Positions 14,777-62,528 of a DNA stretch of 64,000 nucleotides are shown here, piece after piece. The position numbers were made by a program, and so were the translations under genes. This stretch comes from an uncultured Dehalococcoidales bacterium (GTDB lineage Bacteria > Chloroflexota > Dehalococcoidia > Dehalococcoidales > CAZFRL01). Position 1 is the stretch's first letter. Every line of letters starts with the position of its first letter. The DNA lies in the NCBI GenBank assembly GCA_964521325.1, contig CAZFRL010000003.1, positions 6,373 to 70,372 of the forward strand, written 5' to 3'. Under the pieces are notes generated by a model. It saw only the letters and a program-made list of their open reading frames with translations. It did not search any database and was not told the origin of the DNA.

Positions 14777-15591
14777 TGAAAAAAGAAGGTTATGTAATCA
14801 TCATCGCTGAAATCGGTGAAAATCACGTCGGTGATATGGAGCTGGCAAAGAAGATGATTGTCCAGGCGGCTAAAGCTGGAGCGGATATGGTGAAGTTCCA
14901 GTCCTATTTAACCTCTGAGGTAAGGGATGATGACCCGGAAAAGGAATGGTTTGCCAGGGTCCAGCTATCAGATAAAGCCCATCATGAGCTTAAAGAGTAT
15001 GCCGAGCGGCACGGAGTTGAATTCTTAAGCTCGCCCTTCTCCCTTAATCGGGCAAAACTCCTCTGTGAAAGGCTGGGATTAAAAAAGATAAAGATTGCCT
15101 CTTCGGAAATGCTTAACTTTTCTCTTCTAGATTATGTTAACCAGTATGCAGAAGTCGTCTTCCTCTCTACAGGAATGGCAACCATAGACGAAATCAAACT
15201 GTCTTTAAGCCACTTGAGCAAAGTGAAAACCTGCTACATCATGCACTGCGTGACCCAATATCCCGCCAAATTTGAAGATATTAATTTAAGCGTTCTAACC
15301 ACCCTTAAAGCTGCTTTTCCTGATTACCCCATCGGTTATTCCGACCACACTGTGAGTATCTTGGCGCCTATTATTGCGGCAGCTTTAGGCGCTGAGGCAA
15401 TAGAGAAGCACTTTACCCTGGACAAAACGCTTCCGGGAACAGACCATGTTCTGGCGGCTACCCCCAAAGAGCTGAAAGAGATGATTAAAAGGGTTAGAGA
15501 AACTGAAAAGATTTTAGGTAAACCAATTAAACACCCTACCTTGGAGGAAGTAGAAATCAGAGACTTTGTTAGAGGCAGGTTTCCCAAATAG
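14776..15591 (+). CDS. NeuB-family nonulosonic/sialic-acid synthase, TIM-barrel domain only (no SAF domain)
   Basis: 271 aa. IIAEIGENHVGDMELAKKMI..AAKAGADMVKFQSY, SSPFS, IKIASSEM, GYSDHT and EKHFTLD match the NeuB/PseI/LegI core. The ORF ends ~70 aa short of typical NeuB proteins, so the C-terminal SAF/antifreeze-like domain is absent. Confidence 0.8.
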   Translation: MKKEGYVIIIAEIGENHVGDMELAKKMIVQAAKAGADMVKFQSYLTSEVRDDDPEKEWFARVQLSDKAHHELKEYAERHGVEFLSSPFSLNRAKLLCERLGLKKIKIASSEMLNFSLLDYVNQYAEVVFLSTGMATIDEIKLSLSHLSKVKTCYIMHCVTQYPAKFEDINLSVLTTLKAAFPDYPIGYSDHTVSILAPIIAAALGAEAIEKHFTLDKTLPGTDHVLAATPKELKEMIKRVRETEKILGKPIKHPTLEEVEIRDFVRGRFPK

Positions 15592-21750: not shown

Positions 21751-22797
21751 ATGAAAACGTGGGTACTTGTCGGGAATGAGAAACTAGAATTAAAAGAGAT
21801 ACCAATTCCCAATCCAGGGGCAGATGAGATTCTGGTCAGGGTCAAAGCGGCTAGCATTTGTAATAGGACTGACCTTGTTGCCTTTATGTATAACGAAAAA
21901 CCCGTTGAATTTTTCGGGTATAAATTACCCCACCCTGATGATTTTGGGTATGAGTGGGTTGTCCGCAGCCCCTTGTATCTTGACCACTTTGGTCACGAGG
22001 TGACAGGAATTGCAGAAAGGGTAGGAAAAGATATAACGAAAATAGCTACCGGGGACCGTGTTTTTTTGCGTAGCCCCGTAAGAAACCCAGAGCGCTCAGG
22101 ATTTGCCGAATATGTATTAGCCAAGGAATACATGATAGCTAAATTACCCCAGTACTTATCTTTTGAAGAGGGGGTGCTTGGCGAGCTTCTTCCCATCGCC
22201 ATAGGTGCAGCCAGGGACATCAGGCTTGGGGACTACGTGGGCATACTTGGTCAAGGTCCCGGAGGATTGATGATTACCCAGGTGGCAAAACTTCAGGGAG
22301 CCGCTAAAATAATTGTGGCTGATAAGTATGAAAAGAGGTTGAAATTGGCAAAAGAGTTGGGAGCTGACTGCGTAGTCAATGTGACAAGAGAAAATATAGA
22401 AAAGAAGGTGAAGGATATTATAGGAGTATCAGATTTGAAGGACTATGGTCTGGATGTAGTTATTGATGCTGTAGGCACACCAGATGTCTTGAGAGAATGC
22501 CTTAGGTTGGTGAAGAAAGGGGGCTCAGTAAGAATCTTTGGGACGCACCACTTAGAGCCAGTAATGATTGATGTGGTAAAGTGGGAGGAAAAGGCGGTAA
22601 CTATAGGCATGTCAAATGAGGCCACACCTGAAGAAACCGCAGAAAGAATGGCAAGAGCGCAACGCTTATTGGAAGCTGAACTTATAAAAACAAAACCCTT
22701 CATAACCCATGTTTTCAGGCTAGAAGAACTACCACAAGCATTTGCCCTATTAAAGAACTCACCAGGGGAGGTGATAAAGGTTGCTATCACGCCGTGA
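21751..22797 (+). CDS. zinc-type medium-chain dehydrogenase/reductase (sorbitol/threonine dehydrogenase-like)
   Basis: The start is moved to the ATG at 21751, preceded by an AAGGAG SD; the track start is 21730. CNRTD and GHE zinc-ligand contexts and the GQGPGGL Rossmann motif are present. Confidence 0.8.
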   Translation: MKTWVLVGNEKLELKEIPIPNPGADEILVRVKAASICNRTDLVAFMYNEKPVEFFGYKLPHPDDFGYEWVVRSPLYLDHFGHEVTGIAERVGKDITKIATGDRVFLRSPVRNPERSGFAEYVLAKEYMIAKLPQYLSFEEGVLGELLPIAIGAARDIRLGDYVGILGQGPGGLMITQVAKLQGAAKIIVADKYEKRLKLAKELGADCVVNVTRENIEKKVKDIIGVSDLKDYGLDVVIDAVGTPDVLRECLRLVKKGGSVRIFGTHHLEPVMIDVVKWEEKAVTIGMSNEATPEETAERMARAQRLLEAELIKTKPFITHVFRLEELPQAFALLKNSPGEVIKVAITP

Positions 22798-24181
22798 AAC
22801 ACTAAAGGTTACGGTATATATCCCAGCCTATAATTACGGGAAATATATTGAGATGGCTATCCAGAGTGTGTTAAATCAAACCATGGAAGATTGGGAATTG
22901 ATAGTCATAAATGATGGCTCAACAGATAACACCTCGGAGATTCTAAAGGGATATGAAAGCCATCCCAAAATTAGAATTATTGAGCAGCAAAACAAAGGAC
23001 TAACTGTATCGAATAACATTGCTTTAAGGTTGTCTAGCGGTAAATACTTGATGCGACTGGATGCGGATGATTATTTAGACGAAAATGCCCTTCTGGTCTT
23101 GTCAAATGTCCTGGATAGCAAGCAGGAGATTGGCCTTGTTTACCCTGATTACTACGTTATTGATGAAGAAGGAGAAGTTCTTGAAATCGTGCGCAGGAAG
23201 AAGATAGGAGAAGAAGTCGAGTTGCTTGATTTACCTGCCCATGGCGCATGTACTATGTTCCGTAAAGAATGCCTGGTAAGAATCAAGGGGTATGAGGAGA
23301 GTATCGGTTGCCAGGATGGGTATGATATTTGGCTTAAATTTAACCGATTATTTAAGCCGTCTAATGTTAATGTCCCCCTATTTTATTATCGGCAGCATCG
23401 GGGGAACCTAACCAAGGACCAGCAAAAACTTCTGCGGACACGAAAGGCAATCAAAAGCGATTTCGTAAGGAAGTATTTGGACAACGATGTCCCTCGTGTC
23501 TTAGGTATTATTCCAGTGCTGAAGAAATCTCTTTCTTATCCCTATTCCCCTTTCGTAGACCTTGCCGGGAAACCTCTATTATGGTACACAATTCATGAAG
23601 CTTTACAAACGAAAACGCTAGATAAAGTTGTGGTCACTTCAGATGATGACGAAGTCTTGAATTACGCTAAAGCATTTGCTGATATCACTATTATAAAGAG
23701 ACCTCCTGAGCTAACGAAATCTTCTTCGAAAATAGAATCCATTGTAATACACACTCTTAATGTTCTTAAAGAAAAGCATAATGTCCATAATCCGGATGCT
23801 GTCATGGTTTTATATGTTAATGTCCCACTTAGAAAAGCAACACATATAGAAGAAGCAATAAATACAATGGCTATTTTTGATGTTGATAGCGTGGTTTCGG
23901 TGTGTGAAGAACTGGCGTTTTGCTACACGCATGACAGAGATGGCTTAGCCCCTATCTGGAGCAAAAGGGACTTCAGGATAGAAAGAAACTCTATTTATAA
24001 GGAAAACGGAGCCATCCTTTTAAGTAAAGTTACTGCTGTAACGGAAAAGGATTTTTGGGGTAAGAAGATAGGGCATGTCATTATGCTCCCCGAGGAGAGC
24101 ATAAAGATAAATAGTCAGTTTGAATTTTGGCTGGCAGAAAAGATAATATCCGAATGGGATGCGGGGAATGCTGAAGCTTAA
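22781..24181 (+). CDS. fusion: GT2 glycosyltransferase + C-terminal acylneuraminate-cytidylyltransferase-like domain with degenerate N-terminal signature
   Basis: 466 aa. Residues 1-230 carry VYIPAYNYGKYI...NQT...VINDGSTDNT and LDADD (GT2). Residues ~235-460 align in architecture with NeuA-like proteins (GKPLLWYTIHEA, VVTSDDDEVLNYA, IKRPPEL, ending QFEFWLAEKI like the 9774 protein's DDEFDFWIAEQV). The ARGGSKG..KN loop is replaced by PVLKKSLSYPYSPF. Confidence 0.75.
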   Translation: MLSRRETLKVTVYIPAYNYGKYIEMAIQSVLNQTMEDWELIVINDGSTDNTSEILKGYESHPKIRIIEQQNKGLTVSNNIALRLSSGKYLMRLDADDYLDENALLVLSNVLDSKQEIGLVYPDYYVIDEEGEVLEIVRRKKIGEEVELLDLPAHGACTMFRKECLVRIKGYEESIGCQDGYDIWLKFNRLFKPSNVNVPLFYYRQHRGNLTKDQQKLLRTRKAIKSDFVRKYLDNDVPRVLGIIPVLKKSLSYPYSPFVDLAGKPLLWYTIHEALQTKTLDKVVVTSDDDEVLNYAKAFADITIIKRPPELTKSSSKIESIVIHTLNVLKEKHNVHNPDAVMVLYVNVPLRKATHIEEAINTMAIFDVDSVVSVCEELAFCYTHDRDGLAPIWSKRDFRIERNSIYKENGAILLSKVTAVTEKDFWGKKIGHVIMLPEESIKINSQFEFWLAEKIISEWDAGNAEA

Positions 24182-24196
24182 AGGGGAGTCCTCCAA

Positions 24197-26005
24197 ATGA
24201 CTACAGCTACATCTAAACCAGGGACAATGAGACCTAAGAGAGAAATAAAGATAGCCCTTGCATACATCAGGAGATATAAACGGCTATCTGCCATAAATGC
24301 ATTGGTATTAATTGGGGTAGCTGCTTCTGAAGCGTTTGGGATTGGGATGATTATTCCCATTCTACAAAGTCTGATTGGAGAGGCCGGCATAGATTTTTTC
24401 ATCATCGACTATATCAGGTCACTATGTGCCTTTTTGCATATTGAGTATAATTTCCTGAATTTAATGGCTATTTTTGCTGTTATAATAGCGATAAGGTATG
24501 GTCTTACCGCTTTACAACAATATTTAGCTAGGCTTCTGAGTGCGTCCGTAACCTACGAACTCCGAGAAAGAGCTTTCCAAAACTTGATGGACCTTCCCTT
24601 AAATTACCATTACAAACAAAAGACGGGGGATATAATTGCCACTTTATACACTTCGTCGCAGAGTTCAGGTGTTGTGATAGAACAATCTATATTAGCCTTT
24701 TCAATGGTGATAATTTGCTTGGCTTATCTAGTTATTAACTTTTTAATATCCGTCCCGCTTACTCTAATTGTGTGTGTACTGGCTTCACTTTCATATTTTC
24801 TAATAATACCCAGATTTAGAATTGGCTTTATCCAGGGAGGTGAAGAGAAAGGTTTAATAGATAAAATTTCCTCGTTCCTAGTTGATACGCTAGGGGGAAT
24901 TAAAATTCTTAAGTCGTTCAATAACGAAAGCTTCCATGTGAGGAAATTTAGGCAACTGAATTCTTCCTTTAAAAAACTTTCTATTCGGATACAGCTCAAC
25001 CGGATGATAGCTGGTATTTTTTCTGAGCCTCTTATATTTCTAATCACAATTAGTTTAATGGTTTTTGCCATCCAGGTGTTAAATATGTCTCTTGTTTTGA
25101 TGATAACCTTTTTCCTTGTTTTTATTCGATTAATTCCGCAAATTAAGGGGGTCAATGCTAATTATTTGCTGATTTTACAATTATTGCCGCACTTCTCAAA
25201 AGTTGAGGATATAGTTAGGCGAGAGAACAAAACATATCTTCCCGATGGCTCTAGAGAAATCAGGACAATTCGTTCTGGGATAGAATTTAGCCATGTTTAT
25301 TTTAGATATCCCAGCTCTCGGGAGTCTGTTTTGAAGGATGCCAATCTAATGGTGGAAAAGAACAAAAGTACGGCTTTGGTAGGAGTCTCGGGGGGTGGTA
25401 AGACCACAATAGTAGACTTGATTTTAAGGCTGCATGACCCTGATAAAGGTCTTATCAAAGTGGACGGGATTGACTTGCGCGAGTTTAGGAGGAGTGATTG
25501 GCACCGGATTCTCAGTGTAGTTCACCAAGATCCGTATTTATTTAATGACACCATATATAACAATATCTTGTATGGAAAACTAGGGGCTACGAAGGAAGAG
25601 GTTATCAATGCTGCTAAATTGGCGAACGCACATGATTTTATCTCGAAGTTGTCCGATAAATATGACACCCAGGCAGGGGAGAGAGGAGTGAAGCTTTCAG
25701 GGGGGGAGAAGCAAAGGATAGCGCTAGCCAGGGCATTGATAAAAAACCCTGAGGTTTTAATACTTGACGAAGCTACAAGCGCTTTGGACAGTGAATCTGA
25801 AAGGCTCATTAAGGACGCTATTGCCAGGCTTATCACCAGCAAAACAATAATTATTATTGCCCACAGGATATCTACGATTGTGGATGCGGATAAAATAATT
25901 GTTGTTGATAATGGAGAGATTGTCGAAGAAGGTACTCATGAGGAATTGCTCCAAAAAGACGGTATATATAAGAAAAATTATAGTCTACAACTACTCACCG
26001 CATAA
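24197..26005 (+). CDS. ABC exporter, fused permease/ATPase (MsbA/PglK-like)
   Basis: 602 aa. Six N-terminal TM helices, Walker A GVSGGGKTT, signature LSGGEKQR and Walker B ILDEATSALD. Confidence 0.9.
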   Translation: MTTATSKPGTMRPKREIKIALAYIRRYKRLSAINALVLIGVAASEAFGIGMIIPILQSLIGEAGIDFFIIDYIRSLCAFLHIEYNFLNLMAIFAVIIAIRYGLTALQQYLARLLSASVTYELRERAFQNLMDLPLNYHYKQKTGDIIATLYTSSQSSGVVIEQSILAFSMVIICLAYLVINFLISVPLTLIVCVLASLSYFLIIPRFRIGFIQGGEEKGLIDKISSFLVDTLGGIKILKSFNNESFHVRKFRQLNSSFKKLSIRIQLNRMIAGIFSEPLIFLITISLMVFAIQVLNMSLVLMITFFLVFIRLIPQIKGVNANYLLILQLLPHFSKVEDIVRRENKTYLPDGSREIRTIRSGIEFSHVYFRYPSSRESVLKDANLMVEKNKSTALVGVSGGGKTTIVDLILRLHDPDKGLIKVDGIDLREFRRSDWHRILSVVHQDPYLFNDTIYNNILYGKLGATKEEVINAAKLANAHDFISKLSDKYDTQAGERGVKLSGGEKQRIALARALIKNPEVLILDEATSALDSESERLIKDAIARLITSKTIIIIAHRISTIVDADKIIVVDNGEIVEEGTHEELLQKDGIYKKNYSLQLLTA

Positions 26006-26040
26006 GGTTGTGTTGATTTGAAGGAGGTAATGCCTGAATA

Positions 26041-26814
26041 ATGAAGAATCCCTTAAAAATAAAGCTGAGAAATAATGAACTCACCATCGGTAGTTGGATT
26101 ACACTGGGACACACCGCTATCGCTGAGATTATGGCTAAAGCTGGATTTGAGTGGTTGACGATTGATATGGAGCACAGTGTAATAACCCTTGATACTGCCC
26201 AGCAGCTAATCCAGGTTATTGAGGGCTGTGGTGTTGTTCCCCTGGTCAGAGTTGGAGAAAACAATCCAAACATAATTAAGCGGGTGATGGATGCTGGTGC
26301 CTACGGAGTAATTGTTCCTATGGTGAATAGCAAAGAGCAGGCTGAAGCCGCGGTTAAGGCAGTTAAATATCCATCTGTTGGTACTAGAGGGGTAGGATTA
26401 GCTCGAGCTCAAGGTTACGGTGACAACTTTGATGAATATGCTGCAACCGTTAATGAGGCATCCATAGTAATCGCTCAAATAGAACACATAGATGCGGTAA
26501 ATAATATTGAATCAATCCTTTCTGTAGCTGGGATAGATGGTTGCATAATAGGCCCCTACGACTTATCTGCCTCGCTGGGAATACCCGGTGATTTTGCTCA
26601 TCCCGAAGTAATAGCAGCGTTGAAAAAAGTAGAACAGACTTGCCGGGAGAAAAAAGTTGCCTTAGGCGTACATATAATCCAGCCAGATTATAGGTTAGTC
26701 TTGGAAGAAATTGCCAAAGGCTACTGTTTTATAGCTTTTAGCTTGGACATATTGTTTTTGGGCAATACCTGCCGCGAGCAGATGGCAAGGCTTAAGGAAA
26801 ATATAGAGAGGTAA
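26041..26814 (+). CDS. HpcH/HpaI-family class II (pyruvate) aldolase
   Basis: 257 aa. G.W........AEI.A.AGF.W..IDMEH, PLVRV, GVIVPMV and GPYDLS match 2-keto-3-deoxy-sugar-acid aldolases (HpaI/YfaU/GarL type). Confidence 0.85.
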   Translation: MKNPLKIKLRNNELTIGSWITLGHTAIAEIMAKAGFEWLTIDMEHSVITLDTAQQLIQVIEGCGVVPLVRVGENNPNIIKRVMDAGAYGVIVPMVNSKEQAEAAVKAVKYPSVGTRGVGLARAQGYGDNFDEYAATVNEASIVIAQIEHIDAVNNIESILSVAGIDGCIIGPYDLSASLGIPGDFAHPEVIAALKKVEQTCREKKVALGVHIIQPDYRLVLEEIAKGYCFIAFSLDILFLGNTCREQMARLKENIER

Positions 26815-26817
26815 ATA

Positions 26818-27597
26818 ATGAAGATAATAGGCATAATTCCAGCTAGAATGGGTTCGTCTCGTTTTCCAGGTAAGCCACTGGCAAAAATACTGGGAATTCC
26901 GATGATGGGACATGTCTATTTTAGAAGCAAAATGAGCCAAAGTCTAGATGAAATTTATGTAGCCACCTGTGATAAAGAGATTTGTGATTATGTGGAATCC
27001 ATCGGCGGTGAGGCTATTATGACCTCAGATTCTCATGAGCGCTGCACTGATAGGATTGCTGAAGCACTTGAAAAAATAGAAGCAACGACCAGGAGCAGGG
27101 TAGATATTGTGGTCAATATTCAGGGAGATGAACCCATGGTTTTTCCTGAAATGATTGACGAAGCAGTAGCTCCAATGTTAATTGATAGCTCTATAGTAAC
27201 CACCAATCTAATGGCGCAAATGAAAACCCGTAAGGAACATGAAGACCCGAATGAGGTGAAGGTGGTAGTTGACCAAGATAATTATGCCCTATATTTTTCC
27301 CGGGAACCCATCCCGTCATGGAAGAAAGGGGCAACCGAAGTGCCTATGTTAAAACAGGTATGTATCATTCCCTTCCGGCGAGACTTTTTATTCAGATTTA
27401 ATCAACTTGAGCCCACTCCGCTGGAGAAAGTTGAATCGGTAGATATGTTACGGGCTATGGAACATGGCTATAAGGTAAAGATGGTTCTAACCAGTTTTGA
27501 AACCTTTAGTGTAGATACCTCTGAAGACCTGCGCTTTGTCGAAGAACGGATGAAAAATGACCCGCTTCTTCCAAAATATCAAGGGACTGAGAAATGA
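26818..27597 (+). CDS. kdsB: 3-deoxy-manno-octulosonate cytidylyltransferase family protein (KdsB-like; substrate uncertain)
   Basis: 259 aa. IIPARMGSSRFPGKPL, H.RCTDRIAE, NIQGDEP, YALYFSREPIP and VESVDMLRAMEHG align along the whole length with my recollection of E. coli KdsB. Confidence 0.8.
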   Translation: MKIIGIIPARMGSSRFPGKPLAKILGIPMMGHVYFRSKMSQSLDEIYVATCDKEICDYVESIGGEAIMTSDSHERCTDRIAEALEKIEATTRSRVDIVVNIQGDEPMVFPEMIDEAVAPMLIDSSIVTTNLMAQMKTRKEHEDPNEVKVVVDQDNYALYFSREPIPSWKKGATEVPMLKQVCIIPFRRDFLFRFNQLEPTPLEKVESVDMLRAMEHGYKVKMVLTSFETFSVDTSEDLRFVEERMKNDPLLPKYQGTEK

Positions 27598-28586
27598 AAG
27601 AAGAAGAGATTCGCAAGCGGTCGGTGTTCAACCGCTATCTGGAACTGGTTGCCGAAGATGTTAAAACAATATTTACTGACCGTAGCTGTTTTATTCAGAT
27701 TGACTGCCCGGCTTGTGGAGGTAAAAACTACCAGTCACAGTTCGAGAAGTTAGGGTTTACCTATGTGCTGTGTCCAGATTGTGGTACTTTATTTGTGAAT
27801 CCCAGACCTCCAGCTCAATTGCTAATTGAATTTTACACTAAATCGCCTTCTACTAGTTTCTGGGTTCATGATTTCTTTCAACCAGTGGCTGAGGCTCGAA
27901 GAGAAAAAATCTTCCGACCAAGAGCAGAGTATATTAGAGATACCTTCCCCGAAATATCAAACGGGGTAATTGGAGATATAGGGGCTGGTTTTGGACTATT
28001 CCTGGAAGAATTAGCTAAGCTCTGGCCTTCGGCTAAATTGGTAGCCATTGAACCGTCTGATGAGATGGTGGCTATTTGTAAAGACAAGGGCTTGGAAGTC
28101 CTGCCTTATGCTGTGGAGAATGTTCAGGGCTGGGATAACCAGTTTGATTTGCTCACATCATTTGAGCTTTTTGAGCACCTATATAACCCGGGTGAGTTTC
28201 TGAACAAAGTCTGGCATTTATTACGTCAGGGGGGGCGTTTATTTCTCACCACCTTAAATGGAGAGGGTTTCGATATTCAGATATTGTGGCAAAAATCAAA
28301 GAGTGTAGCCCCACCGCATCATTTGAATTTTTTTAATCCGCGGTCAATAACGAGGCTACTTCAAGAGAACAACTTTGTTGTCGAGAAGGTTGATACTCCT
28401 GGTAAACTTGACTGGGATATAATAGAGGGAATGTACCGAGAGGGGGAAGTAGCACTTGGGCATTTTTGGCAGTTGGTTGCCGAGCAGGCTGGGCCAGCTG
28501 CTAAAAGTAGCTTGCAGGACTGGATATCGAAAAATGGTCTGTCTTCTCATATGAGAATACTGGCAAGGAGGGTCTCCCAGTCGTGA
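27594..28586 (+). CDS. class I SAM methyltransferase with N-terminal CxxC...CxxC zinc ribbon
   Basis: 330 aa. CPACGG...CPDCG zinc ribbon, then motif I IGDIGAGFGLF. ATGA overlap with kdsB-like. Confidence 0.8.
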   Translation: MKEEEIRKRSVFNRYLELVAEDVKTIFTDRSCFIQIDCPACGGKNYQSQFEKLGFTYVLCPDCGTLFVNPRPPAQLLIEFYTKSPSTSFWVHDFFQPVAEARREKIFRPRAEYIRDTFPEISNGVIGDIGAGFGLFLEELAKLWPSAKLVAIEPSDEMVAICKDKGLEVLPYAVENVQGWDNQFDLLTSFELFEHLYNPGEFLNKVWHLLRQGGRLFLTTLNGEGFDIQILWQKSKSVAPPHHLNFFNPRSITRLLQENNFVVEKVDTPGKLDWDIIEGMYREGEVALGHFWQLVAEQAGPAAKSSLQDWISKNGLSSHMRILARRVSQS

Positions 28587-29455
28587 GCCTTCAAAGTTTC
28601 CTCAAACATATTTTGCCGAATAAAATAATTCTTTGGATTATCCGCTTACACCAACTAATACGCATTAAGTCTCTTCGTCCTGCTGTTCGTGAACAGAAAC
28701 TATCACCTATTTACCATCAGTTAACCAAGATTGTTCCTGATATTACCCACCAATATACTTCTTCTGACTTAGACTCAGAATATTTGATAACCAAGGCTAG
28801 AGCCCAGCACTCCTTTCAAATTGCTCTGGTGAATGAAGCTCTACAATCTATTAATGGTCCGCCGAAGGATACAATAACAATCGTTGACATTGGTGATTCA
28901 GCCGGTACCCACCTTCAATATATAAAGGGAATCCACAAAGACCGCAACATTCGCTGTTTAAGCATAAATATAGATGGAGAAGCAGTTAGGCGAATTAAGG
29001 AGAAAGGGCTGGAAGCAATTTGTGCTCGTGCTGAGGATTTACCATCTCGTTCCATTGAAGCCGATATTTTTCTATCCTTTGAGATGCTCGAGCACCTGGC
29101 GAACCCCTGTGGGTTTCTCCGGAGTCTTTCTGAAACCGAGTGCAAGGCTTTTGTAGTAACTGTTCCTTATGTCAACTGTAGCCGAGTGGGCCTGTATCAT
29201 ATCCGGGAAAACCAAAAGCGCAATGTAAATCCTGAAGATACGCATATTTTTGAACTTTCACCAGAGGACTGGCGGTTGCTTTTCAAACACTCAGGATGGG
29301 CAGTACAAGCTGACAAAGTTTACCTACAATATTCCAGAAAGTCTCCGCTTCGCTTTTGGTTGAAAAGGTACTGGAAACGATATGATTTTGAAGGCTTCTA
29401 TGGTGCCATTCTAAAGCCGGATAAATCCTGGAGTAGTTTGTATAATGGGTGGTAG
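28583..29455 (+). CDS. class I SAM-dependent methyltransferase (divergent)
   Basis: 290 aa. GTGA overlap start. IVDIGDSAGTH motif I-like and FEMLEHL (post-II) motif. Confidence 0.65.
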   Translation: MSLQSFLKHILPNKIILWIIRLHQLIRIKSLRPAVREQKLSPIYHQLTKIVPDITHQYTSSDLDSEYLITKARAQHSFQIALVNEALQSINGPPKDTITIVDIGDSAGTHLQYIKGIHKDRNIRCLSINIDGEAVRRIKEKGLEAICARAEDLPSRSIEADIFLSFEMLEHLANPCGFLRSLSETECKAFVVTVPYVNCSRVGLYHIRENQKRNVNPEDTHIFELSPEDWRLLFKHSGWAVQADKVYLQYSRKSPLRFWLKRYWKRYDFEGFYGAILKPDKSWSSLYNGW

Positions 29456-29471
29456 ACAAGAAGGGTTGACA

Positions 29472-30395
29472 ATGCCAAGAATATTTATTTCCACTTCTTC
29501 TTTTGCCAAATATGATGCATCACCATTAAAGTTGCTGAAGGAAGTTGGCATGAATGTTCAGATAAATCCTTACCAGCGTAAACTTACCCCAGATGAGTGT
29601 TTGAATCTTTATAAAGATATTGATGGCCTACTTGCCGGCACTGAGGCTTTAACCGCTAAAGTCTTGAGGTCGGCCAAGAACTTGAAGGTTATATCGCGTT
29701 GCGGTGTGGGCACAGATAATATTGATATGGGAGCGGCAAAAGAGCTGGGAATTAAGGTATTCATTACAGCGGATGCCCCTACCCAGGCAGTAGCTGAGCT
29801 AACCATCGGTCTGATACTAGACCTGTTGCGCGGTATTTCTGCACAAGACCACTTAGTTAAAACCAGCTCATGGCAGAAGAATATGGGCAGCTTACTTTCA
29901 GGGAAGACCCTTGGCATTCTAGGACTGGGAAGAATAGGTAAGAAGGTGGTAGAGCTAACACAACCCTTCAATTTGAAGTATGTCGCCTGGGATAATTCGC
30001 CAGACAGGCAGTTTGCTGATAAATACAGCATTGAGCTTACCGGGCTTGATGAGCTGCTAACCAAAGCCGATATAGTGACAGTTCATCTTCCTTATACCTC
30101 TGAATTGAAGGGTATTATCGGAGAAAGAGAACTTAGTTTAATGAAACGAGGTGCCTTTTTGCTCAATACCGCTCGAGGGGGACTGGTGGATGAGGTTGCA
30201 CTCTATAGTGCGCTAAAGGCAAAAGGAATTGCCGGGGCAGCCCTGGATACCTTTGACCAAGAACCCTATACTGGTCCTTTAACGGAACTGGATAACGTTA
30301 TTCTCACTCCCCATATTGGCTCATACGCCAGAGAAGCCCGCATAGAGATGGAAACCCAGGCAGTAAAAAATTTGCTTCAAGGGTTTGGACTTTAA
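29472..30395 (+). CDS. D-isomer-specific 2-hydroxyacid dehydrogenase (PGDH/GyaR-like)
   Basis: The start is moved to the ATG at 29472 (MPRIFIST); the track start is 29445. GILGLGRIGKKV NAD motif, NTARGGLVDE and LDTF..EP. Confidence 0.85.
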   Translation: MPRIFISTSSFAKYDASPLKLLKEVGMNVQINPYQRKLTPDECLNLYKDIDGLLAGTEALTAKVLRSAKNLKVISRCGVGTDNIDMGAAKELGIKVFITADAPTQAVAELTIGLILDLLRGISAQDHLVKTSSWQKNMGSLLSGKTLGILGLGRIGKKVVELTQPFNLKYVAWDNSPDRQFADKYSIELTGLDELLTKADIVTVHLPYTSELKGIIGERELSLMKRGAFLLNTARGGLVDEVALYSALKAKGIAGAALDTFDQEPYTGPLTELDNVILTPHIGSYAREARIEMETQAVKNLLQGFGL

Positions 30396-30451
30396 AAAAA
30401 GGCTCGCAATAATTAAAAAAGTACATCGTTAAAATATTTTAATACGCTGTG

Positions 30452-30481
30452 TTGACAACAGGGCATATTTATGGTTATGAT
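30452..30481 (+). promoter_or_regulatory. internal sigma70-type promoter candidate
   Basis: TTGACA (30452-30457), 18-nt spacer, TATGAT (30476-30481) in the 165-nt gap after the dehydrogenase. This argues against the track's 30449 start for the next ORF. Confidence 0.5.
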
Positions 30482-30559
30482 GTGCTCATCTGGCAATTTC
30501 TTAATTGTCTTTGGGTTTTAACATTAAAATCAAGAGAAGGTGCTCATAGGAGTTTTGGA

Positions 30560-31204
30560 GTGATTAAGGCGGTTATTTTTGATGTTGACGGGGTTATAAT
30601 TGAGTCAGCCGAGATTAAGACTAGGGCTTTTGAGCTGCTTTTTGCCGATTATCCTGATAAGCTAGGGGAAATTATTGACTACCATAAGAGAAATGCTGGT
30701 CTTTCCCGTTATATCAAGTTTAGGTATTTTTACGAGGAAATATTAAGACAGAAGCTTCCTCCCCAAAAAGAAGCTGAATTAGGGGAAAGATTCTCCCAAA
30801 TTGTCCTGCATGAGGTTCTCAAAGCACCATTTGTACCAGGAGTCCTAGATTTTCTTACACGGAATAAAGACCGTTACCATTTCTTTATCGCTTCCGGCAC
30901 TCCTGAGGACGAACTCCGTAACATTATTACCCACCGCAAATTGGACCACTTTTTCCATGAGATACACGGCACCCCAAAGCTGAAAGAGGAAATCATAGAA
31001 GATATTCTAAGCAGATACTCTTTGCAGAGGAAGGAAACTGTTTTTATCGGTGATGCTGAAAGCGACCGAGTTTCTGTTGACAAGGTAGGGGTACTCTTCA
31101 TTGCTCGTATTAGCCCGGGGGATCATCAACTGCAAGACTGCCGTTGGAAAGTTAACGATTTAACTGGTCTGGATACCCTTTTGAGCAACATGAGTGCTTG
31201 TTAA
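30560..31204 (+). CDS. HAD-superfamily hydrolase (beta-phosphoglucomutase/phosphatase-like, subfamily IA)
   Basis: The start is moved to the GTG at 30560 (AGGAG SD 7 nt upstream), giving VIKAVIFDVDGVIIES (motif I DxDG). ASGT (motif II) and GDAESD (motif IV) are present. Confidence 0.8.
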   Translation: MIKAVIFDVDGVIIESAEIKTRAFELLFADYPDKLGEIIDYHKRNAGLSRYIKFRYFYEEILRQKLPPQKEAELGERFSQIVLHEVLKAPFVPGVLDFLTRNKDRYHFFIASGTPEDELRNIITHRKLDHFFHEIHGTPKLKEEIIEDILSRYSLQRKETVFIGDAESDRVSVDKVGVLFIARISPGDHQLQDCRWKVNDLTGLDTLLSNMSAC

Positions 31205-31225
31205 AAGAAAGGAGAACAATAACCG

Positions 31226-32137
31226 ATGAAAGCTATAGTCTTTGGTGGCTCAGGTTTTTTGGGGAGCCATGTGGCAGATGCACTCACCAAGACAGGTTAT
31301 GAAACCACCATTTTCGATATTAAAAAGTCGCCATATTTGCAAAAGGGGCAGAAGATGATTCTCGGAAATATTCTTGATAAGGAGGCGGTGGAAAGAGCAG
31401 TAACAGGATACGATGTAGTATACAATTTTGCTGGGGTGGCTGACATTGAGGAGGCACCTAAAAAACCGGTCGAAACAGTAGAAAACAATATTCTTGGGAC
31501 TACTATTATTCTCGAATCCTGTCGTAAAAATGGAGTAAAAAGATTTGTTTTTGCCAGTACTATTTATGTTTATAGTGATACCGGCTCTTTCTACAGAAGC
31601 AGCAAACAGGCCAGTGAACTAATTATTGAGAACTATAATGAGGTTTTTGGGTTGCCCTACACCATATTGAGATATGGCACTCTCTATGGTCCGAGAGCCG
31701 ATGAAAAGAATTATATATACCAAATCCTAAAGCAGGCTATAACCGAGGGTAAAATTATCAGTTTTGGTAAAAGCGATGATTTGAGAGGGTATATTCATGT
31801 TGAGGATGCTGCTCGATATAGTGTAGAAGTCTTATCTAAAGAATTTGAAAGTGAGTATGTAATTCTTACCGGAGCTCAACCCATGAAGAGAGGGAAACTA
31901 CTAACAATGATTAAAGAGATGCTTGGCAATCGTATTCAGATTGACTTCTTGCCAGTAGATTCAGAGCTTCATTATGAGGTCACACCCTATTCATTCAGTC
32001 CAAAAATAGCCAAGGTATATAGAGGTGCTTCTTACCTTGACCTGGGACAGGGAATATTGCAATGCCTAGATGAAATCTATAAAAAGTATTCCCCAGTCAA
32101 GGAGCTAAATGGTATTTTTATGTCAAACAGAGATTGA
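31226..32137 (+). CDS. NAD-dependent epimerase/dehydratase (SDR)
   Basis: 303 aa. GGSGFLGSH and YRSSK (YxxxK). Confidence 0.8.
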   Translation: MKAIVFGGSGFLGSHVADALTKTGYETTIFDIKKSPYLQKGQKMILGNILDKEAVERAVTGYDVVYNFAGVADIEEAPKKPVETVENNILGTTIILESCRKNGVKRFVFASTIYVYSDTGSFYRSSKQASELIIENYNEVFGLPYTILRYGTLYGPRADEKNYIYQILKQAITEGKIISFGKSDDLRGYIHVEDAARYSVEVLSKEFESEYVILTGAQPMKRGKLLTMIKEMLGNRIQIDFLPVDSELHYEVTPYSFSPKIAKVYRGASYLDLGQGILQCLDEIYKKYSPVKELNGIFMSNRD

Positions 32138-32162
32138 GTAAATAGTAAAGAGTAAGGGTTAG

Positions 32163-33971
32163 ATGAAAGACACTATTATCGTGCATGCCAGAGATATAAA
32201 AAAAGCCTCACCCATAGCAGCCAAGAGGCCTTTTAACTGGCTCTACTTGGGACAAGATATCAAACAAAGGGAGAATATTTCCCAGGCGCTGGGGAAGGAA
32301 AATCGCTACTTCATTGGAGATTTATTACAGAAGGCTGCCCTTAGAGAAAAGCAGCCATTTCTCGATTTCATCGCCCAGCTAGGTCTTTGCCAGAAAAACA
32401 AACTTTACTGGTGGTCATCAAATACTGCCTATAGACACCCATTTCTGAGAAACGACCTCTTTTTACTCTGGTGTTATAATGCCATCCTTGACAAGATTTG
32501 CTCAGAAAAGAAACAAGATGGAGATAGAGTACTTTTTATTCTTGTCGAGGACCGTTGGTTGTATCGGTATTTGTGGGAACACAGCCAGAAGAATGGATAT
32601 GGTTTTCGTTTTTTAAGCCGGAAATCTGTGCTTCCAGAAATTCTGAAGTCCGTAATTAGGGGCATCGCCAGTAGAGGGTATTTTCTGCTAAAGACTACCT
32701 ACCAAGTTTGGCAGTCAAGAGGTATTGCTTCTAGGCGTAAAATCATTAGTAGCAAAGGGGATAGGCAGCAAGTTTATATTTATTCCTGGATACAGGATAG
32801 GTTCTTCCAGGGAAACGGGAAGTTTAACGATGCTTATTTGGGAAGGCTACCAGAAATCTTAACTAAAAACGGCTTTAATGTTGCCTACATTACATCTCCG
32901 TTTCTCTACCCCGCCCTAAAGAGAAAATGCCTGGATTACGGTAAGTATGAATTCACCTTCTTGGACCAGTACATCGATTTTGGCAACATAGTGAAGTGTC
33001 TATTTACCCTTTCCCCTATTTCTTATGATAGTAAGCAAAGATGGTTAAGGACGCTACTCTGGCGCCAAACCGTGTATGAAATTTCCTCGGTTCCTGGACA
33101 CCTTCTTTATTACTGTGCTTTTAAAAAGTGGCTGAAAGAAATTAGCCGGGGTGAGATTACCATAGTCTACCCCTTTGAAAACCAGCCCTGGGAAAAAATG
33201 CTCTGTATGGCGGCAAAAGAGTCAGGCAAAAATATAAAGCTGGTTGGTTATCAACACTCAGTAGTCCCCGCCTTATTGCTAAACTATTTCCTTGGGGCTA
33301 AGGAGTCCAGTAATATGCCTCTGCCTCACACTGTAGTAGCCAATGGTGAATATACACTGGAATTACTTAAGAATGCCAGGTATGGGAATGTGGAATTGGT
33401 GAATGGGGGTGCTCTGCGATATGAGCACCTTCATGAGATTAGAGAACGCTTAACTAAAAAAGAGGGGAAATTAAAAACTGTTTTGGTAGCACTGCCCTAC
33501 CTAGCTAATCTTGCCCGAGAGATGTTATTAACTACATTTAATACCTTCAAAGATTCGGAGGGGGAAAATATCAGAATCATTATAAAGCCCCATCCAGTTG
33601 TGCCCTTAAAACGCTTAAAAATGCAGCCGTTGTCTTGGCCGGCGCATTTTCAGAAAACAGATAAATCCATATCGGAAATCCTTAAAGATGTCGATTTGCT
33701 TATTTACTCATCATCAACTACCGGCTTAGAGACGCTCCTGGCTGGTGTTCCAGTCATTAAATACTGCTCGGGGCATATTATTGATCTTGATACCTTAGAT
33801 GCTCTTGATGGAGCAGCGGTAAGAAGTTGCTCTGAAAATAACATGAAGCAAGTGGTTTTATCAGCTCTAAATGAAAAGAGTGACCACTCAGCCCAACGAC
33901 TTACAACGAGCCTTGACCGGTTCTTTTCTCCAGTTAACGAAGACGTATGGAAGCAAATCGTGAAGTGTTAA
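32163..33971 (+). CDS. orphan 602-aa protein, third member of the QH/SS-motif putative transferase group
   Basis: Motifs GKNIKLVGYQHSVV (~res 361) and VDLLIYSSSTTGLETLLAGVPVI (~res 512). The motif order and ~150-residue spacing match ORFs 16354 and 18177. Confidence 0.55.
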   Translation: MKDTIIVHARDIKKASPIAAKRPFNWLYLGQDIKQRENISQALGKENRYFIGDLLQKAALREKQPFLDFIAQLGLCQKNKLYWWSSNTAYRHPFLRNDLFLLWCYNAILDKICSEKKQDGDRVLFILVEDRWLYRYLWEHSQKNGYGFRFLSRKSVLPEILKSVIRGIASRGYFLLKTTYQVWQSRGIASRRKIISSKGDRQQVYIYSWIQDRFFQGNGKFNDAYLGRLPEILTKNGFNVAYITSPFLYPALKRKCLDYGKYEFTFLDQYIDFGNIVKCLFTLSPISYDSKQRWLRTLLWRQTVYEISSVPGHLLYYCAFKKWLKEISRGEITIVYPFENQPWEKMLCMAAKESGKNIKLVGYQHSVVPALLLNYFLGAKESSNMPLPHTVVANGEYTLELLKNARYGNVELVNGGALRYEHLHEIRERLTKKEGKLKTVLVALPYLANLAREMLLTTFNTFKDSEGENIRIIIKPHPVVPLKRLKMQPLSWPAHFQKTDKSISEILKDVDLLIYSSSTTGLETLLAGVPVIKYCSGHIIDLDTLDALDGAAVRSCSENNMKQVVLSALNEKSDHSAQRLTTSLDRFFSPVNEDVWKQIVKC

Positions 33972-33995
33972 ATGTCAGTACGAGGAGGGCTAACA

Positions 33996-34784
33996 ATGGA
34001 AAAGCCTGAAGTGGTGATTTTATGTGGTGGCAAAGGCTCCCGGTTAAGTGAGGAGACGATTCTTAAGCCGAAACCAATGGTTGAAATAGGTGGAAGACCA
34101 ATATTATGGCATATAATGAAAATTTATGCCCATTATGGCCATAAAAGGTTTATCCTTGCCCTAGGTTACAAAGGTGAAGATATTAAGAGATACTTCTATG
34201 ACTATAGAATTATGTCGGCTGATTTTACCCTGCCTATGCATCCGCATGAGCCTCCACAGCTTCATAACATTCATAAAGATAATGACTGGGAAATCACCTT
34301 TGTTGATACAGGGTTAAATACCTTGAAAGGTGGAAGGATAAAACGTCTAGAGAAATATATAAAATCTGAAGACTTCCTTTTAACCTATGGTGATGGTGTA
34401 GCCAACATAAATATTGATGACCTTTATAAGTTTCATATCTCCCATGGTAAGATTGGAACGGTAACTGCGGTAAGACCTCCCTCAAGATTCGGCGAGCTAG
34501 TATTATCCAGCGATGAAGTGGTTAAATTTGAGGAGAAACCCCAGCTTGGCACCGGGGTGATTAATGGGGGGTTTTTCGCGTTTAAAAGAGAATTCCTGAA
34601 GTATCTAACGCCTGACGAAGACTGTGATTTTGAGTTTAGTGCTTTGCAGAAACTGGCTCAAGATGGGCAATTGAAAGCCTACTTCCATACCGGATTCTGG
34701 CAGTGCATGGATAATGTCCGTGATAGGGATTACTTAAATAGCCTGTGGGATGATAATGAAGCACATTGGAAGGTATGGAAGTGA
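33996..34784 (+). CDS. rfbF: glucose-1-phosphate cytidylyltransferase
   Basis: The start is moved to the ATG at 33996, preceded by an AGGAGG SD; the track start is 33972. ILCGGKGSRLSEET..KPKPMVEIGGRPILWHIMKIYAHYG...LGYKGE.IK.YF.DY and GFWQCMD match RfbF/DdhA closely. Confidence 0.85.
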   Translation: MEKPEVVILCGGKGSRLSEETILKPKPMVEIGGRPILWHIMKIYAHYGHKRFILALGYKGEDIKRYFYDYRIMSADFTLPMHPHEPPQLHNIHKDNDWEITFVDTGLNTLKGGRIKRLEKYIKSEDFLLTYGDGVANINIDDLYKFHISHGKIGTVTAVRPPSRFGELVLSSDEVVKFEEKPQLGTGVINGGFFAFKREFLKYLTPDEDCDFEFSALQKLAQDGQLKAYFHTGFWQCMDNVRDRDYLNSLWDDNEAHWKVWK

Positions 34785-35857
34785 AGGTCAATCAGGATAA
34801 CCGCAAGCTGCTCTACCATCCAAAGAACATCCAGGAATGGTTAAGCAAAGGCACATGCCAACCAGTGACCGCGGAGATTGACCCAAGTTTAATGTGCAAC
34901 CACAAGTGTCCTGAGTGCACCTTCCGTAACTATCTCAAGAAGCAGTTTATTCCAGGGCGTATCCTAAAAAGATTAGTGCCTGAGCTTTCTGCTGCTGGTG
35001 TCAAAGGAGTGATAATTTCCGGGGGGGGAGAGCCACTTACTAATCCTAATACCTATAGGTTTATCGAATTACTTGCCCAAGGAGGGATTGACGTGACCCT
35101 TTCCACTAATGGGCTTACACTGGATAAGAATATGGAATCCCTTCTTCGTCATTGTTTAAGAATCAGAGTATCAGTGGATGCTGCCTCACCCCAGGTCTAT
35201 CTGAAGACCCATGGCGTGTCGGAGTCCTACTTCAAACGGATGTTAGACAATTTGCACGCAGCCGTTCGCCTAAAAAGAAATTTAGGCTTTAGGACTAACC
35301 TTGGCATTAGCTTCCTTGTCTCCAGCCAAACTAAGGAGGATATCGTTCCGGCTATGGCATTGTTTAAAGAAATAGGGTTAGACTTTATCCAATTTAAGCC
35401 GATGCAGAGATATGATGAGAGTAAAAGCCAGTGGTACTATGAGGACATTGGCTCCCTCGAGGAGTATATCGCTAGGAAACATGACTTCGAGAGTGAAACA
35501 TTCAGGATTAGCTTCCTACGGGAGAAATATTTTGTGGGGGAGAAATATGAGAGGGGCTATACCAGGTGTCACGGTGCGTGTTTTGATTTAGTAATTGGCG
35601 CCGATTCTAAGGTATACCTCTGTTGCCATCTCAAGTATAATCCGAGTTATTGCCTTGGAGACCTTCAGTCAGAGCCTCTTATTAATACCATTGAACGAAT
35701 CAGGTCAAATTCTCGCGTGACAAAGGATTGCGTCCCTCTCTGCCGGCTGGACGCTATTAATGAACTCCTTGAAGATTTTCCCAACAATCCAGATAATGCT
35801 ATCCATGTCTTGAACCAGTTTAAAGGGGACGATGCATTGGATAAGAACTGGTTATAA
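34766..35857 (+). CDS. radical SAM enzyme (sugar-modifying, function unknown)
   Basis: 363 aa. CNHKCPECTF (CxxxCxxC), the glycine-rich ISGGGEPL SAM motif and a C-terminal Cys cluster (CHGACF...LCCH...C). Overlaps the rfbF stop. An alternative start is at 34775. Confidence 0.8.
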   Translation: MEGMEVKVNQDNRKLLYHPKNIQEWLSKGTCQPVTAEIDPSLMCNHKCPECTFRNYLKKQFIPGRILKRLVPELSAAGVKGVIISGGGEPLTNPNTYRFIELLAQGGIDVTLSTNGLTLDKNMESLLRHCLRIRVSVDAASPQVYLKTHGVSESYFKRMLDNLHAAVRLKRNLGFRTNLGISFLVSSQTKEDIVPAMALFKEIGLDFIQFKPMQRYDESKSQWYYEDIGSLEEYIARKHDFESETFRISFLREKYFVGEKYERGYTRCHGACFDLVIGADSKVYLCCHLKYNPSYCLGDLQSEPLINTIERIRSNSRVTKDCVPLCRLDAINELLEDFPNNPDNAIHVLNQFKGDDALDKNWL

Positions 35858-48658: not shown

Positions 48659-48668
48659 ATGTATCCTC

Positions 48669-49846: not shown

Positions 49847-49869
49847 AATTCCTCCGGTTGCCTGACTTA

Positions 49870-50856: not shown

Positions 50857-50887
50857 TTCACCCTCATTCGGTTGTTATCTGACATAG

Positions 50888-51616: not shown

Positions 51617-51625
51617 CGTTCCTCC

Positions 51626-52576: not shown

Positions 52577-52658
52577 TTATCACCTCTACTAAATAATGGC
52601 ATCAAAGAACTCGCATTTTTAGACTTCTTGTTCCAAATGTCCTTGAACATTACTCGCT

Positions 52659-54095: not shown

Positions 54096-54115
54096 ACCAA
54101 CTCTTCTTCCATAGC

Positions 54116-59048: not shown

Positions 59049-59138
59049 GGTATTAACTCAAGAAGCGTTGTTTGTTGGTGTTCTTCCACAACGATAGACG
59101 AGTGCTAAACTTTATAAAGTATAAGCTGGAGGCTAAGA

Positions 59139-62519: not shown

Positions 62520-62528
62520 CAATACCCC

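Follow-up and report, generated by a model that had tools for sequence, protein, structure and literature searches.

A conserved aldolase-cytidylyltransferase gene cassette as a possible route to a CMP-activated 2-ulosonic acid in an uncultured Dehalococcoidales bacterium

The window, by which is meant the whole 64,000-nucleotide stretch of contig CAZFRL010000003.1 from an uncultured Dehalococcoidales bacterium, carries on its plus strand a cassette of genes at 26041-33971, in which an aldolase gene is directly followed by a gene for a KdsB-like cytidylyltransferase. On balance, and judging from sequence, the cassette appears to encode a self-contained pathway to a 2-ulosonic acid, often O-methylated and activated as the cytidine monophosphate (CMP) derivative, the carbon skeleton of which would be made by the aldolase. 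The cassette is probably horizontally mobile, and its product is probably destined for a surface glycan.

The genes between 26041 and 32137 are closely packed on a single strand. A first-pass annotation had named them from the DNA letters, and the open reading frame (ORF) listing and profile searches bore out its list, with seven ORFs placed correctly on the plus strand. The first gene, 26041-26814, has a GGAGG upstream of its ATG and encodes a class II (metal-dependent) 2-keto-acid aldolase of the HpcH/HpaI family (PF03328, 4.9e-39). It is followed, after a gap of 3 nt rather than the 4 nt counted earlier, by the gene for a KdsB-subfamily cytidylyltransferase with a remodelled sugar pocket, here called the 'QIFDM' type (26818-27597; PF02348/CTP_transf_3, 1.4e-50). 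Two genes for S-adenosylmethionine (SAM)-dependent methyltransferases come next. One encodes a class I enzyme with a Cys-rich, Zn-ribbon-like N-terminus (27594-28586; Methyltransf_23, 2.5e-18), and the other a second, divergent enzyme (28583-29455; weak Methyltransf_11, 3.9e-6). The overlaps described before, an ATGA at 27594-27597 between the cytidylyltransferase and Zn-ribbon methyltransferase genes and a GTGA at 28583-28586 between the two methyltransferase genes, are both present.

The gene for a D-2-hydroxyacid dehydrogenase with a fold like that of phosphoglycerate dehydrogenase (PGDH) occupies 29445-30395 (PF02826 and PF00389); its start may instead be the ATG at 29472. The next gene encodes a HAD-IA phosphatase (30560-31204; PF00702/PF13419). 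Its ORF is open from 30449, but the gene probably starts at the GTG at 30560, which has an AGGAG ahead of it, and a 214-residue gene call on an identical Logan contig agrees with this start. The gap between the dehydrogenase and phosphatase genes is consequently 164 nt. An internal promoter had been proposed in this gap. The best sigma-70-like match in 24000-34000 does lie there (30452-30481, plus strand; TTGACA-18-TATGAT, 11/12 consensus matches), but it is no more than a match to the consensus, and across the region as a whole promoter-like sites are as numerous as in shuffled sequence, without enrichment. Two further genes complete the cassette. The first, at 31226-32137, encodes an extended short-chain dehydrogenase/reductase (SDR; PF01370, 2.7e-42), a core member nearest to nucleotide-sugar 4-epimerases. 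The second, at 32163-33971, encodes a TIGR04326-like protein of 602 residues, to which a structural model assigns a GT-B fold. Both belong to the same conserved unit as the aldolase gene; the first-pass annotation did not recognise the SDR and the 602-residue probable transferase as core. Nothing special was found in the base composition at the cassette, and the window contains no tRNA genes.

Upstream of the aldolase gene lies the gene for an ABC exporter, a fused permease-ATPase of the HepA/MsbA/PglK-like kind (24197-26005, plus strand; PF00664 and PF00005), the top NCBIfam match of which, HepA_fam_ABC, scores under its cut-off. Its homologues are found immediately upstream of the aldolase gene in loci L006, L016 and L048 and nearby in L010, L041, L067 and L093. 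The exporter is associated with the cassette and is not a core member.

The association of the aldolase with a cytidylyltransferase was followed in genomes and metagenomes. Homologues of the aldolase number in the thousands, and the best 120 share 71-100% identity. A scan of species-representative genomes returned relatives at 49-82% identity from five lineages: uncultured Dehalococcoidia and metagenome-assembled genomes (MAGs) of an Omnitrophota, a Bdellovibrionota, a Rhodopseudomonas and a deltaproteobacterium. A KdsB-like gene directly follows the aldolase gene in the Dehalococcoidia (L005, GCA_040960625.1, and L006, CAYWAU01), the Omnitrophota (L008), the Bdellovibrionota (L009) and Rhodopseudomonas (L010), and in the last two loci the genes overlap by 4 nt. 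A metagenome scan gave at least 600 stretches with at least 546 confirmed relatives; 80 loci, with aldolases at 53-83% identity, were kept, and ORFs were called and clustered in these and in the loci of the genome scan. Adjacency was counted in the 40 loci that extend 2 kb or more downstream of the aldolase gene and 1.5 kb or more upstream of it. A PF02348 cytidylyltransferase is encoded no more than two genes from the aldolase in 37 of them, and anywhere in the locus in 39. Among the 37 adjacent enzymes, 28 are KdsB-like and encoded downstream, and nine are NeuA/PseF-like and encoded upstream, so that the same aldolase has acquired cytidylyltransferase partners from two distinct PF02348 subfamilies. 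The pairing is far beyond chance. The coupling noted in the window is conserved in at least five lineages and on a plasmid of Acuticoccus, and because of this conservation across lineages the aldolase does not appear to be an unrelated catabolic neighbour.

The other partners were counted within 4 kb upstream and 8 kb downstream of the aldolase gene in the 29 'long loci', which have at least 5 kb downstream. The 2-hydroxyacid dehydrogenase is encoded in 23 of these, an SDR of the type at 31226 in 21, and a HAD protein in 16; in one more (L010) an inositol-monophosphatase-family gene takes the place of the HAD gene. Some methyltransferase gene is present in 15 long loci, the gene for the 602-residue protein stands downstream of the cassette in eight, and NeuB is encoded in one. 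A tblastn search of plasmids with the aldolase found almost exclusively catabolic enzymes of the HpaI/BphF type, at no more than 38% identity. A single match at 43% is the cassette copy of a cultured Acuticoccus (sp. I52.16.1; plasmid NZ_CP094833.1, genes MRB58_RS24555-24575), where five bare genes stand with no NeuB gene nearby. They encode the aldolase, an enzyme annotated as 'acylneuraminate cytidylyltransferase family', a 'phosphoglycerate dehydrogenase', a HAD protein and an NAD(P) oxidoreductase. Since the plasmid copy has only those five, they appear to be complete as a set and to start from central metabolites. Gene content across the loci thus describes a conserved, portable five-gene core, to which accessory methyltransferases and a transferase are added.

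The composition of the cassette is not the same everywhere. In one architecture a gene like that of the YhcH/NanQ-type N-acetylneuraminate anomerase stands between the cytidylyltransferase and aldolase genes. Its presence is in keeping with an ulosonic acid intermediate that is free and mutarotates. On the marine contigs L058 (7146-9942), L063, L065 and L079 the order of the encoded proteins is NeuA-like cytidylyltransferase, YhcH/NanQ-like anomerase, aldolase, SDR, 6-phosphogluconolactonase, HAD protein and dehydrogenase. The lactonase gene is found between the SDR and HAD genes in seven loci (L045, L056, L058, L063, L065, L067 and L079), and the enzyme is bona fide by TIGR01198 (156 bits, cut-off 124). 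A gene for a cyclase-family hydrolase is similarly placed in L005 and L027; in L009 it follows the KdsB-like gene. A third architecture includes SIS, GFO/IDH/MocA, FabG-like and DHQS-like genes. These were considered as parts of the pathway and set aside, being missing from the minimal cassette; they may belong to neighbouring sugar pathways. In the Omnitrophota MAG (L008, 5916-9784 and 16847-17944) a carbamoyltransferase gene and a 3-dehydroquinate-synthase-like gene adjoin the cassette, and may serve extra tailoring or a separate sugar pathway.

The KdsB-like cytidylyltransferase would ordinarily be taken for the enzyme that activates 3-deoxy-D-manno-octulosonate (Kdo). It clears the cut-offs of the KdsB models in NCBIfam (326 bits for PRK13368, cut-off 255; 177 for TIGR00466, cut-off 155), and its nearest solved relatives are all KdsB or KpsU, the closest being E. 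coli KpsU (1gq9, 2e-44). Forty-one homologues linked to a cassette were aligned with KdsB and KpsU of E. coli and with KdsB of Vibrio; positions are given here in E. coli numbering. Residues R10, R15, K19, Q98, G99, D100, R157, R213 and D235 are invariant; the catalytic and CTP (cytidine triphosphate)-binding residues among them, R10, R15, K19, Q98, D100 and D235, are kept in all 41 members. Five other positions, identical in the three canonical sequences compared, are replaced: H181 by Q in 40 of the 41, Y185 by I, M or N in 39, Y187 by F in 39, E210 by D in 40, and Q211 by M in every member. The enzyme of the window has Q, I, F, D and M at these positions in place of the canonical H, Y, Y, E and Q. 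H181, E210 and Q211 are counted among the residues of the Kdo pocket. In the 3K8D complex of E. coli KdsB, Q98 and Y185 hold the C5 hydroxyl (O5) of Kdo, and H181 is in the active site (PMC12199768). Catalytic roles have been described for K19 and two Asp residues (PMC3149649).

Among 1.8 billion cluster representatives the enzyme has 1783 relatives at E values of 1e-30 or less. The signature Q-(I/M)-F-D-M occurs in about 75 of the best 150 representatives, clustered at 50% identity, and the canonical HYYEQ appears among these 150 only from about rank 66 downward. The alignment thus separates the KdsB-like protein of the cassette from bona fide KdsB and places it in a sizeable subfamily of its own, in which the chemistry is conserved and the sugar pocket is more hydrophobic. 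Automated annotation will label this subfamily KdsB despite the changed pocket. The acids that the PF02348 family is known to activate, Kdo and the sialic, pseudaminic and legionaminic acids, are 2-ulosonic acids.

Ordinary Kdo supply, with the KdsB-like protein as a normal CMP-Kdo synthetase and the aldolase as an unrelated catabolic enzyme or a Kdo aldolase acting on arabinose and pyruvate, is what the model scores and the nearest structures would indicate, but it is very improbable because the pocket residues, including the O5-binding Tyr185, are replaced throughout the clade, and also in view of the aldolase adjacency conserved across phyla and of the cassette on an alphaproteobacterial plasmid, the host of which should have a chromosomal kdsB. 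The first-pass annotation had reported no KdsA/DAHP-synthase-type or KdsD gene in the window. This holds for the scanned ORFs of at least 150 residues, among which KdsA, KdsC-type and KdsD proteins had no match, three minus-strand ORFs of that size (49247-49846, 55050-55793 and 56241-56885) lying outside the profile scan. The nearest relatives are, moreover, from Dehalococcoidia, which are not known to have an outer membrane or lipid A.

The aldolase is under every equivalog cut-off of the characterised enzymes of its family (HpaI, 196 bits against 369; GarL, 173 against 407; RhmA, 171 against 441). The closest solved structure is YfaU (2vws, 7.6e-46), to which it is about 36% identical. The catalytic His and Arg (H45 and R70) and the metal-binding Glu and Asp (E148 and D174) are invariant across the aldolase clade and YfaU. 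Members of the clade are 48-83% identical across phyla and are found in the context of glycan synthesis; in the loci examined, no copy was found in an aromatic or sugar-acid catabolic operon.

The dehydrogenase scores 245 bits with the PGDH model TIGR01327, the cut-off of which is 454, and its closest structure is the short PGDH 1wwk (5e-58). Its clade retains the catalytic R and H motifs. The V-R-S motif of PGDH stands before the first domain crossover, contributes to phosphate binding and is present in the human enzyme and that of P. horikoshii; each of the 38 clade members has A-G-x-(E/D) instead. Because the motif is replaced in every member, the dehydrogenase is, by this comparison, not classed as a bona fide phosphoglycerate dehydrogenase. 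The production of hydroxypyruvate from 3-phosphoglycerate by the dehydrogenase and the HAD protein was considered, and is weakened by the loss of the Arg-Ser motif, in place of which there is a conserved acidic residue. Formation of hydroxypyruvate from free glycerate by the dehydrogenase is possible.

The HAD protein is a capped type IA enzyme and is not KdsC-like; a search of the PDB gave no close solved relative. The SDR has UDP (uridine diphosphate)-hexose 4-epimerases as its best solved relatives (4zrm, 1e-24). Its orthologues are 43-72% identical, and a gene of the SDR type is also present in the Acuticoccus cassette. The first methyltransferase has weak matches to S27e/YnfU zinc ribbons at residues 26-71, and the PDB search with it returned only generic class I methyltransferases. 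Its homologues are encoded within the cassette in eight of the 29 long loci; in L006, L017 and L026 the gene is inserted between those of the aldolase and cytidylyltransferase. Homologues of the second, at 49-75% identity, are encoded inside the cassette in L005, L017, L027, L040, L070 and L071. From this distribution both appear to be accessory decoration enzymes.

The 602-residue protein matches no Pfam family at 1e-5. With TIGR04326 it scores 112 bits, against a cut-off of 250, over residues 314-564 only, and it is therefore a relative and not a scored member of that family; JGI labels some of its homologues TIGR04326. An AlphaFold2 model built from 39 homologues has a mean predicted local distance difference test (pLDDT) of 87.4 and a predicted template modelling score (pTM) of 0.89. 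A Foldseek search with this model returned GT-B glycosyltransferases and UDP-N-acetylglucosamine (UDP-GlcNAc) 2-epimerases, at E values of about 1e-9. The top PDB match of the family profile, weak at E 0.013, is KpsC (6mgb), a CMP-Kdo-dependent enzyme of the retaining beta-Kdo transferases (KpsC/KpsS, GT107), which have a modified GT-B fold. An invariant K-x-H-P and an invariant S..G.E..G stretch align the family with KpsC, and PF05159 is matched weakly (E 0.008); both are below thresholds. H477 and P478 are invariant in the 39 homologues. With moderate confidence, the protein is probably the transferase for the CMP-sugar. In two proteins from other metagenomes, P0168 (L098, 1291-3741) and P0195 (L097, 2128-4617), of 816 and 829 residues, a HAD domain is fused to the TIGR04326-like protein. 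These fusions hint that dephosphorylation is coupled to transfer or that the transferred unit is phosphorylated.

The cassette sits within a 30-kb glycan island on one strand (7461-36836), which also encodes a transferase related to the LIC12162 family, a CDP (cytidine diphosphate)-glucose branch and several GT2 enzymes. The first-pass annotation passed over two NeuB-type, phosphoenolpyruvate (PEP)-dependent ulosonate synthases upstream in the window (14776-15591 and 20112-21716) and three further PF02348 domains (9774-10394, the N-terminus of 20112-21716 and the C-terminus of 22781-24181). The NeuB genes are 4-11 kb upstream, next to these other cytidylyltransferase domains and apart from the cassette. 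The 206-residue protein of 9774-10394 is a PseF-like cytidylyltransferase. The gene at 20112-21716 encodes a three-part fusion of 534 residues, with a cytidylyltransferase as its N-terminal part followed by NeuB and SAF, and the one at 22781-24181 a fusion of a GT2 enzyme with a cytidylyltransferase (466 residues). Because of the NeuB and cytidylyltransferase complement of the island, its glycan may carry up to three or four distinct CMP-activated acids.

Other genes of the window are also of interest. The stretch 12685-14075, flanked by an aminotransferase/SDR pair and by the first NeuB gene, encodes a formyltransferase and a PIG-L-type deacetylase, which points to an amino sugar or nonulosonic acid that is N-formylated. 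The 602-residue product of 16354-18162, another protein of that length, has no Pfam domain and is a relative of the LIC12162 family TIGR04331 (167 bits, cut-off 225); that of 18177-20093 (638 residues) has no Pfam domain and no family match whatsoever. At 33972-35857 a glucose-1-phosphate cytidylyltransferase gene, above its equivalog cut-off (328 bits against 300), overlaps a radical SAM gene whose best match, a tungsten-cofactor maturase, is far under the cut-off; the pair may represent an unusual CDP-hexose modification. On the minus strand, 47969-55075 encodes a transaldolase/FSA-family protein, a GmhB-like HAD protein, a GHMP kinase, a nucleotidyltransferase, an SDR like GDP (guanosine diphosphate)-mannose dehydratase, a B12-binding radical SAM enzyme and a GT2 enzyme. 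This set looks like a nucleoside diphosphate-heptose route with a radical methylation or rearrangement step. The island is flanked on one side by the gene for a DUF1616 membrane protein (6259-7131, minus strand) and on the other, at 57093-63428, by genes for large Fe-S/flavin oxidoreductases, including one multi-domain protein of 1126 residues. No tRNA or mobility gene was found at its borders.

The following order of steps is proposed for the cassette. The aldolase would join the pyruvate enolate to an aldehyde, in the simplest case a phosphorylated aldose, to give a 4-hydroxy-2-oxo acid; hydroxypyruvate would be an alternative, less likely donor. A class II Mg-dependent 2-keto-acid aldolase would in this way replace the PEP-dependent KdsA or NeuB as the enzyme that forms the C-C bond. 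The HAD phosphatase would strip the phosphate and thereby turn the aldol step, in itself reversible, into an irreversible one; KdsC does the same in Kdo synthesis. With CTP, the KdsB-subfamily enzyme, its pocket rebuilt for a substrate other than Kdo, would form the CMP-glycoside and pyrophosphate, and this activation would also draw the aldol step forward. In the roughly half of the loci that have them, the accessory methyltransferases would O-methylate the sugar. The dehydrogenase and the GalE-like SDR may tailor the sugar by redox chemistry (epimerisation), as ElaA and ElaC do, or prepare the aldol partner. Finally, the TIGR04326-like GT-B protein would move the sugar onto the glycan, and the neighbouring ABC exporter may help in outward transport. 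A cytidylyltransferase acting with two NAD(P) oxidoreductases has a precedent in ElaABC, a set of just such enzymes that epimerises CMP-legionaminic acid (PMC13656337).

The suggestion of the first-pass annotation, a non-canonical ulosonic acid route through a pyruvate aldolase, thus gains support from the conserved adjacency and from the remodelled pocket of the KdsB-like enzyme, both read from sequence alone. A broader proposal is about evenly poised between right and wrong. In it, a class II pyruvate aldolase takes the place of a PEP-dependent synthase in a widespread route to a new, often O-methylated acidic sugar, which the 'QIFDM' enzymes activate with CMP and a new KpsC-like GT-B family installs on glycans of the cell surface. 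The carriers would include Dehalococcoidia, Omnitrophota, Bdellovibrionota, alphaproteobacteria and marine bacteria.

Several points weigh against a pathway built on the aldolase. HpcH/HpaI-family aldolases are otherwise catabolic, and their reaction is reversible. No extra Arg or Lys for phosphate binding is obvious in the aldolase clade, which is weak evidence. A simple Kdo-like scheme leaves the roles of three other core enzymes unexplained, as well as the lactonase in the marine architecture, and the dehydrogenase family acts at C2 of 2-hydroxy and 2-keto acids, which is a poor fit to the tailoring of a CMP-glycoside. The 6-phosphogluconolactonase or cyclase-family hydrolase encoded beside the SDR and HAD genes suggests an aldonate route without an aldolase. 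NeuB is encoded within 10 kb in about a third of the long loci, this window among them. As to the last step, the transferase assignment leans on weak sequence matches, with E values of about 0.01, and the predicted fold resembles that of hydrolysing UDP-GlcNAc 2-epimerases such as NeuC.

Such an aldonate route, the alternative that survives best, would still be unlikely. The SDR would oxidise C1 of a sugar phosphate to a lactone, which would open spontaneously or by a lactonase to the aldonate; the dehydrogenase would oxidise C2, and the resulting 2-keto-aldonate phosphate would be dephosphorylated by the HAD protein and activated with CMP as a non-deoxy 2-ulosonic acid. Four of the five core enzymes would act in one linear chain. 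The true 6-phosphogluconolactonase of the seven loci and the hydrolase of L005, L027 and L009 would have their place in it, the dehydrogenase, whose family includes 2-ketogluconate(-6-phosphate) reductases, counts a 'probable 2-ketogluconate reductase' among its solved relatives, and there is a weak hit of an SDR-type glucose-6-phosphate dehydrogenase (Azf). The aldolase could then serve C3/C4 epimerisation by a retro-aldol/aldol sequence and not be the primary synthase, or it could add pyruvate to the 2-keto group to give a branched dicarboxylic ulosonic acid. Such a side role is hard to reconcile with the loci, in which the aldolase is the only universally conserved partner of the cytidylyltransferase, ahead of both the dehydrogenase (23 of 29) and the SDR (21 of 29). 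The SDR is, besides, nearest to nucleotide-sugar 4-epimerases and not to sugar 1-dehydrogenases, and the window lacks the lactonase, as do most loci. We also know of no CMP-activated 2-keto-aldonate.

Less probable still, and distinctly so, is the supply of a substituent. The cassette would make, in place of a glycosyl donor of its own, a small acid, for instance a methylated glycerate or some other hydroxy acid, for the decoration of NeuB-derived nonulosonic acids, and the KdsB-like enzyme would activate a NeuB product. The two NeuB genes of the window and those near about a third of the long loci could provide that product, and the dehydrogenase, phosphatase and two methyltransferases could in principle yield di-O-methylglycerate, which is known on the pseudaminic acid of Campylobacter (mentioned in 10.64898/2026.04.20.719630). 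Most loci, and the Acuticoccus plasmid, have no nearby NeuB gene, however, and the NeuB genes of the window are already adjoined by other cytidylyltransferase domains. The core contains no acyl-activating or acyl-transfer enzyme, half of the loci lack methyltransferases, and the aldolase would be left without a role.

The aldolase-based pathway, if it operates as proposed, would represent a new biosynthetic logic, in which a natural pathway relies on a reversible pyruvate aldolase pulled by CTP-dependent activation. CMP-activated sugars shape host recognition, phage sensitivity and envelope stability. To our knowledge they form a very small class, Kdo, the sialic, pseudaminic and legionaminic acids and some relatives, all made by PEP-dependent synthases. 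The product of the cassette would be an addition to these monosaccharides, an acidic sugar not known before on the surfaces of many uncultured bacteria, and hundreds of 'KdsB' annotations would be misleading. The aldolase, the cytidylyltransferase with its shifted promiscuity and the transferase would be candidates for biocatalysis. The five-gene unit of a cultured strain makes the claim directly testable.

The first-pass annotation knew of no such route, and full-text searches of the literature likewise found no description of the aldolase-cytidylyltransferase cassette. A preprint on SugarBase (10.64898/2026.04.20.719630) reports new CMP-ulosonic acids in Magnetospirillum and mentions no aldolase. 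From its genes, the cassette would represent a widespread and apparently undescribed form of CMP-ulosonic acid biosynthesis in which a class II aldolase acts as synthase. The cassette appears to belong neither to the Kdo nor to the nonulosonic acid pathways: KdsA and KdsD are missing from it, NeuB is outside the unit, and the residues typical of the Kdo pocket and of PGDH are replaced.

With the Kdo pathway (KdsD-KdsA-KdsC-KdsB) and with KpsU the cassette has in common the family of its last-step cytidylyltransferase, down to identical catalytic residues, as well as a phosphatase of the HAD superfamily; its probable transferase aligns weakly with KpsC over an HP nucleotide-binding stretch. It differs in having a class II pyruvate-type aldolase instead of KdsD and KdsA, a PEP-dependent enzyme of the DAHP-synthase fold. 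Its HAD protein is a capped type IA enzyme, its cytidylyltransferase has a rebuilt pocket, and its core also includes a 2-hydroxyacid dehydrogenase and an SDR. As in the nonulosonic pathways (NeuB/PseI/LegI with NeuA/PseF/LegF), the product would be an ulosonic acid activated with CMP and bound for a surface glycan, and one architecture of the cassette has a NeuA/PseF-like cytidylyltransferase and a NanQ-like anomerase; in ElaABC, too, the cytidylyltransferase adjoins two NAD(P) oxidoreductases. Unlike those pathways, the cassette relies on a condensing enzyme other than NeuB, with pyruvate and not PEP as the probable donor, and its core has no UDP- or GDP-sugar dehydratase, aminotransferase, acetyltransferase or hydrolysing 2-epimerase.

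Enzymes of the HpcH/HpaI family join pyruvate to aldehydes reversibly. With the catabolic HpaI, GarL, RhmA and YfaU, and with the hydroxy-keto-acid aldolases of biocatalysis, the aldolase of the cassette has in common the fold and the catalytic His, Arg, Glu and Asp; unlike them, it is under every equivalog cut-off and is encoded in glycan loci near a cytidylyltransferase. A parallel to the proposed chemistry is the one-pot chemo-enzymatic synthesis of CMP-sialic acids, where a reversible pyruvate aldolase is also pulled by CTP-dependent activation. That system is man-made and combines a class I (Schiff-base) sialic acid aldolase with CMP-sialic acid synthetase, whereas the coupling in the cassette appears to be natural, genetically fixed and built on a class II, metal-dependent aldolase.

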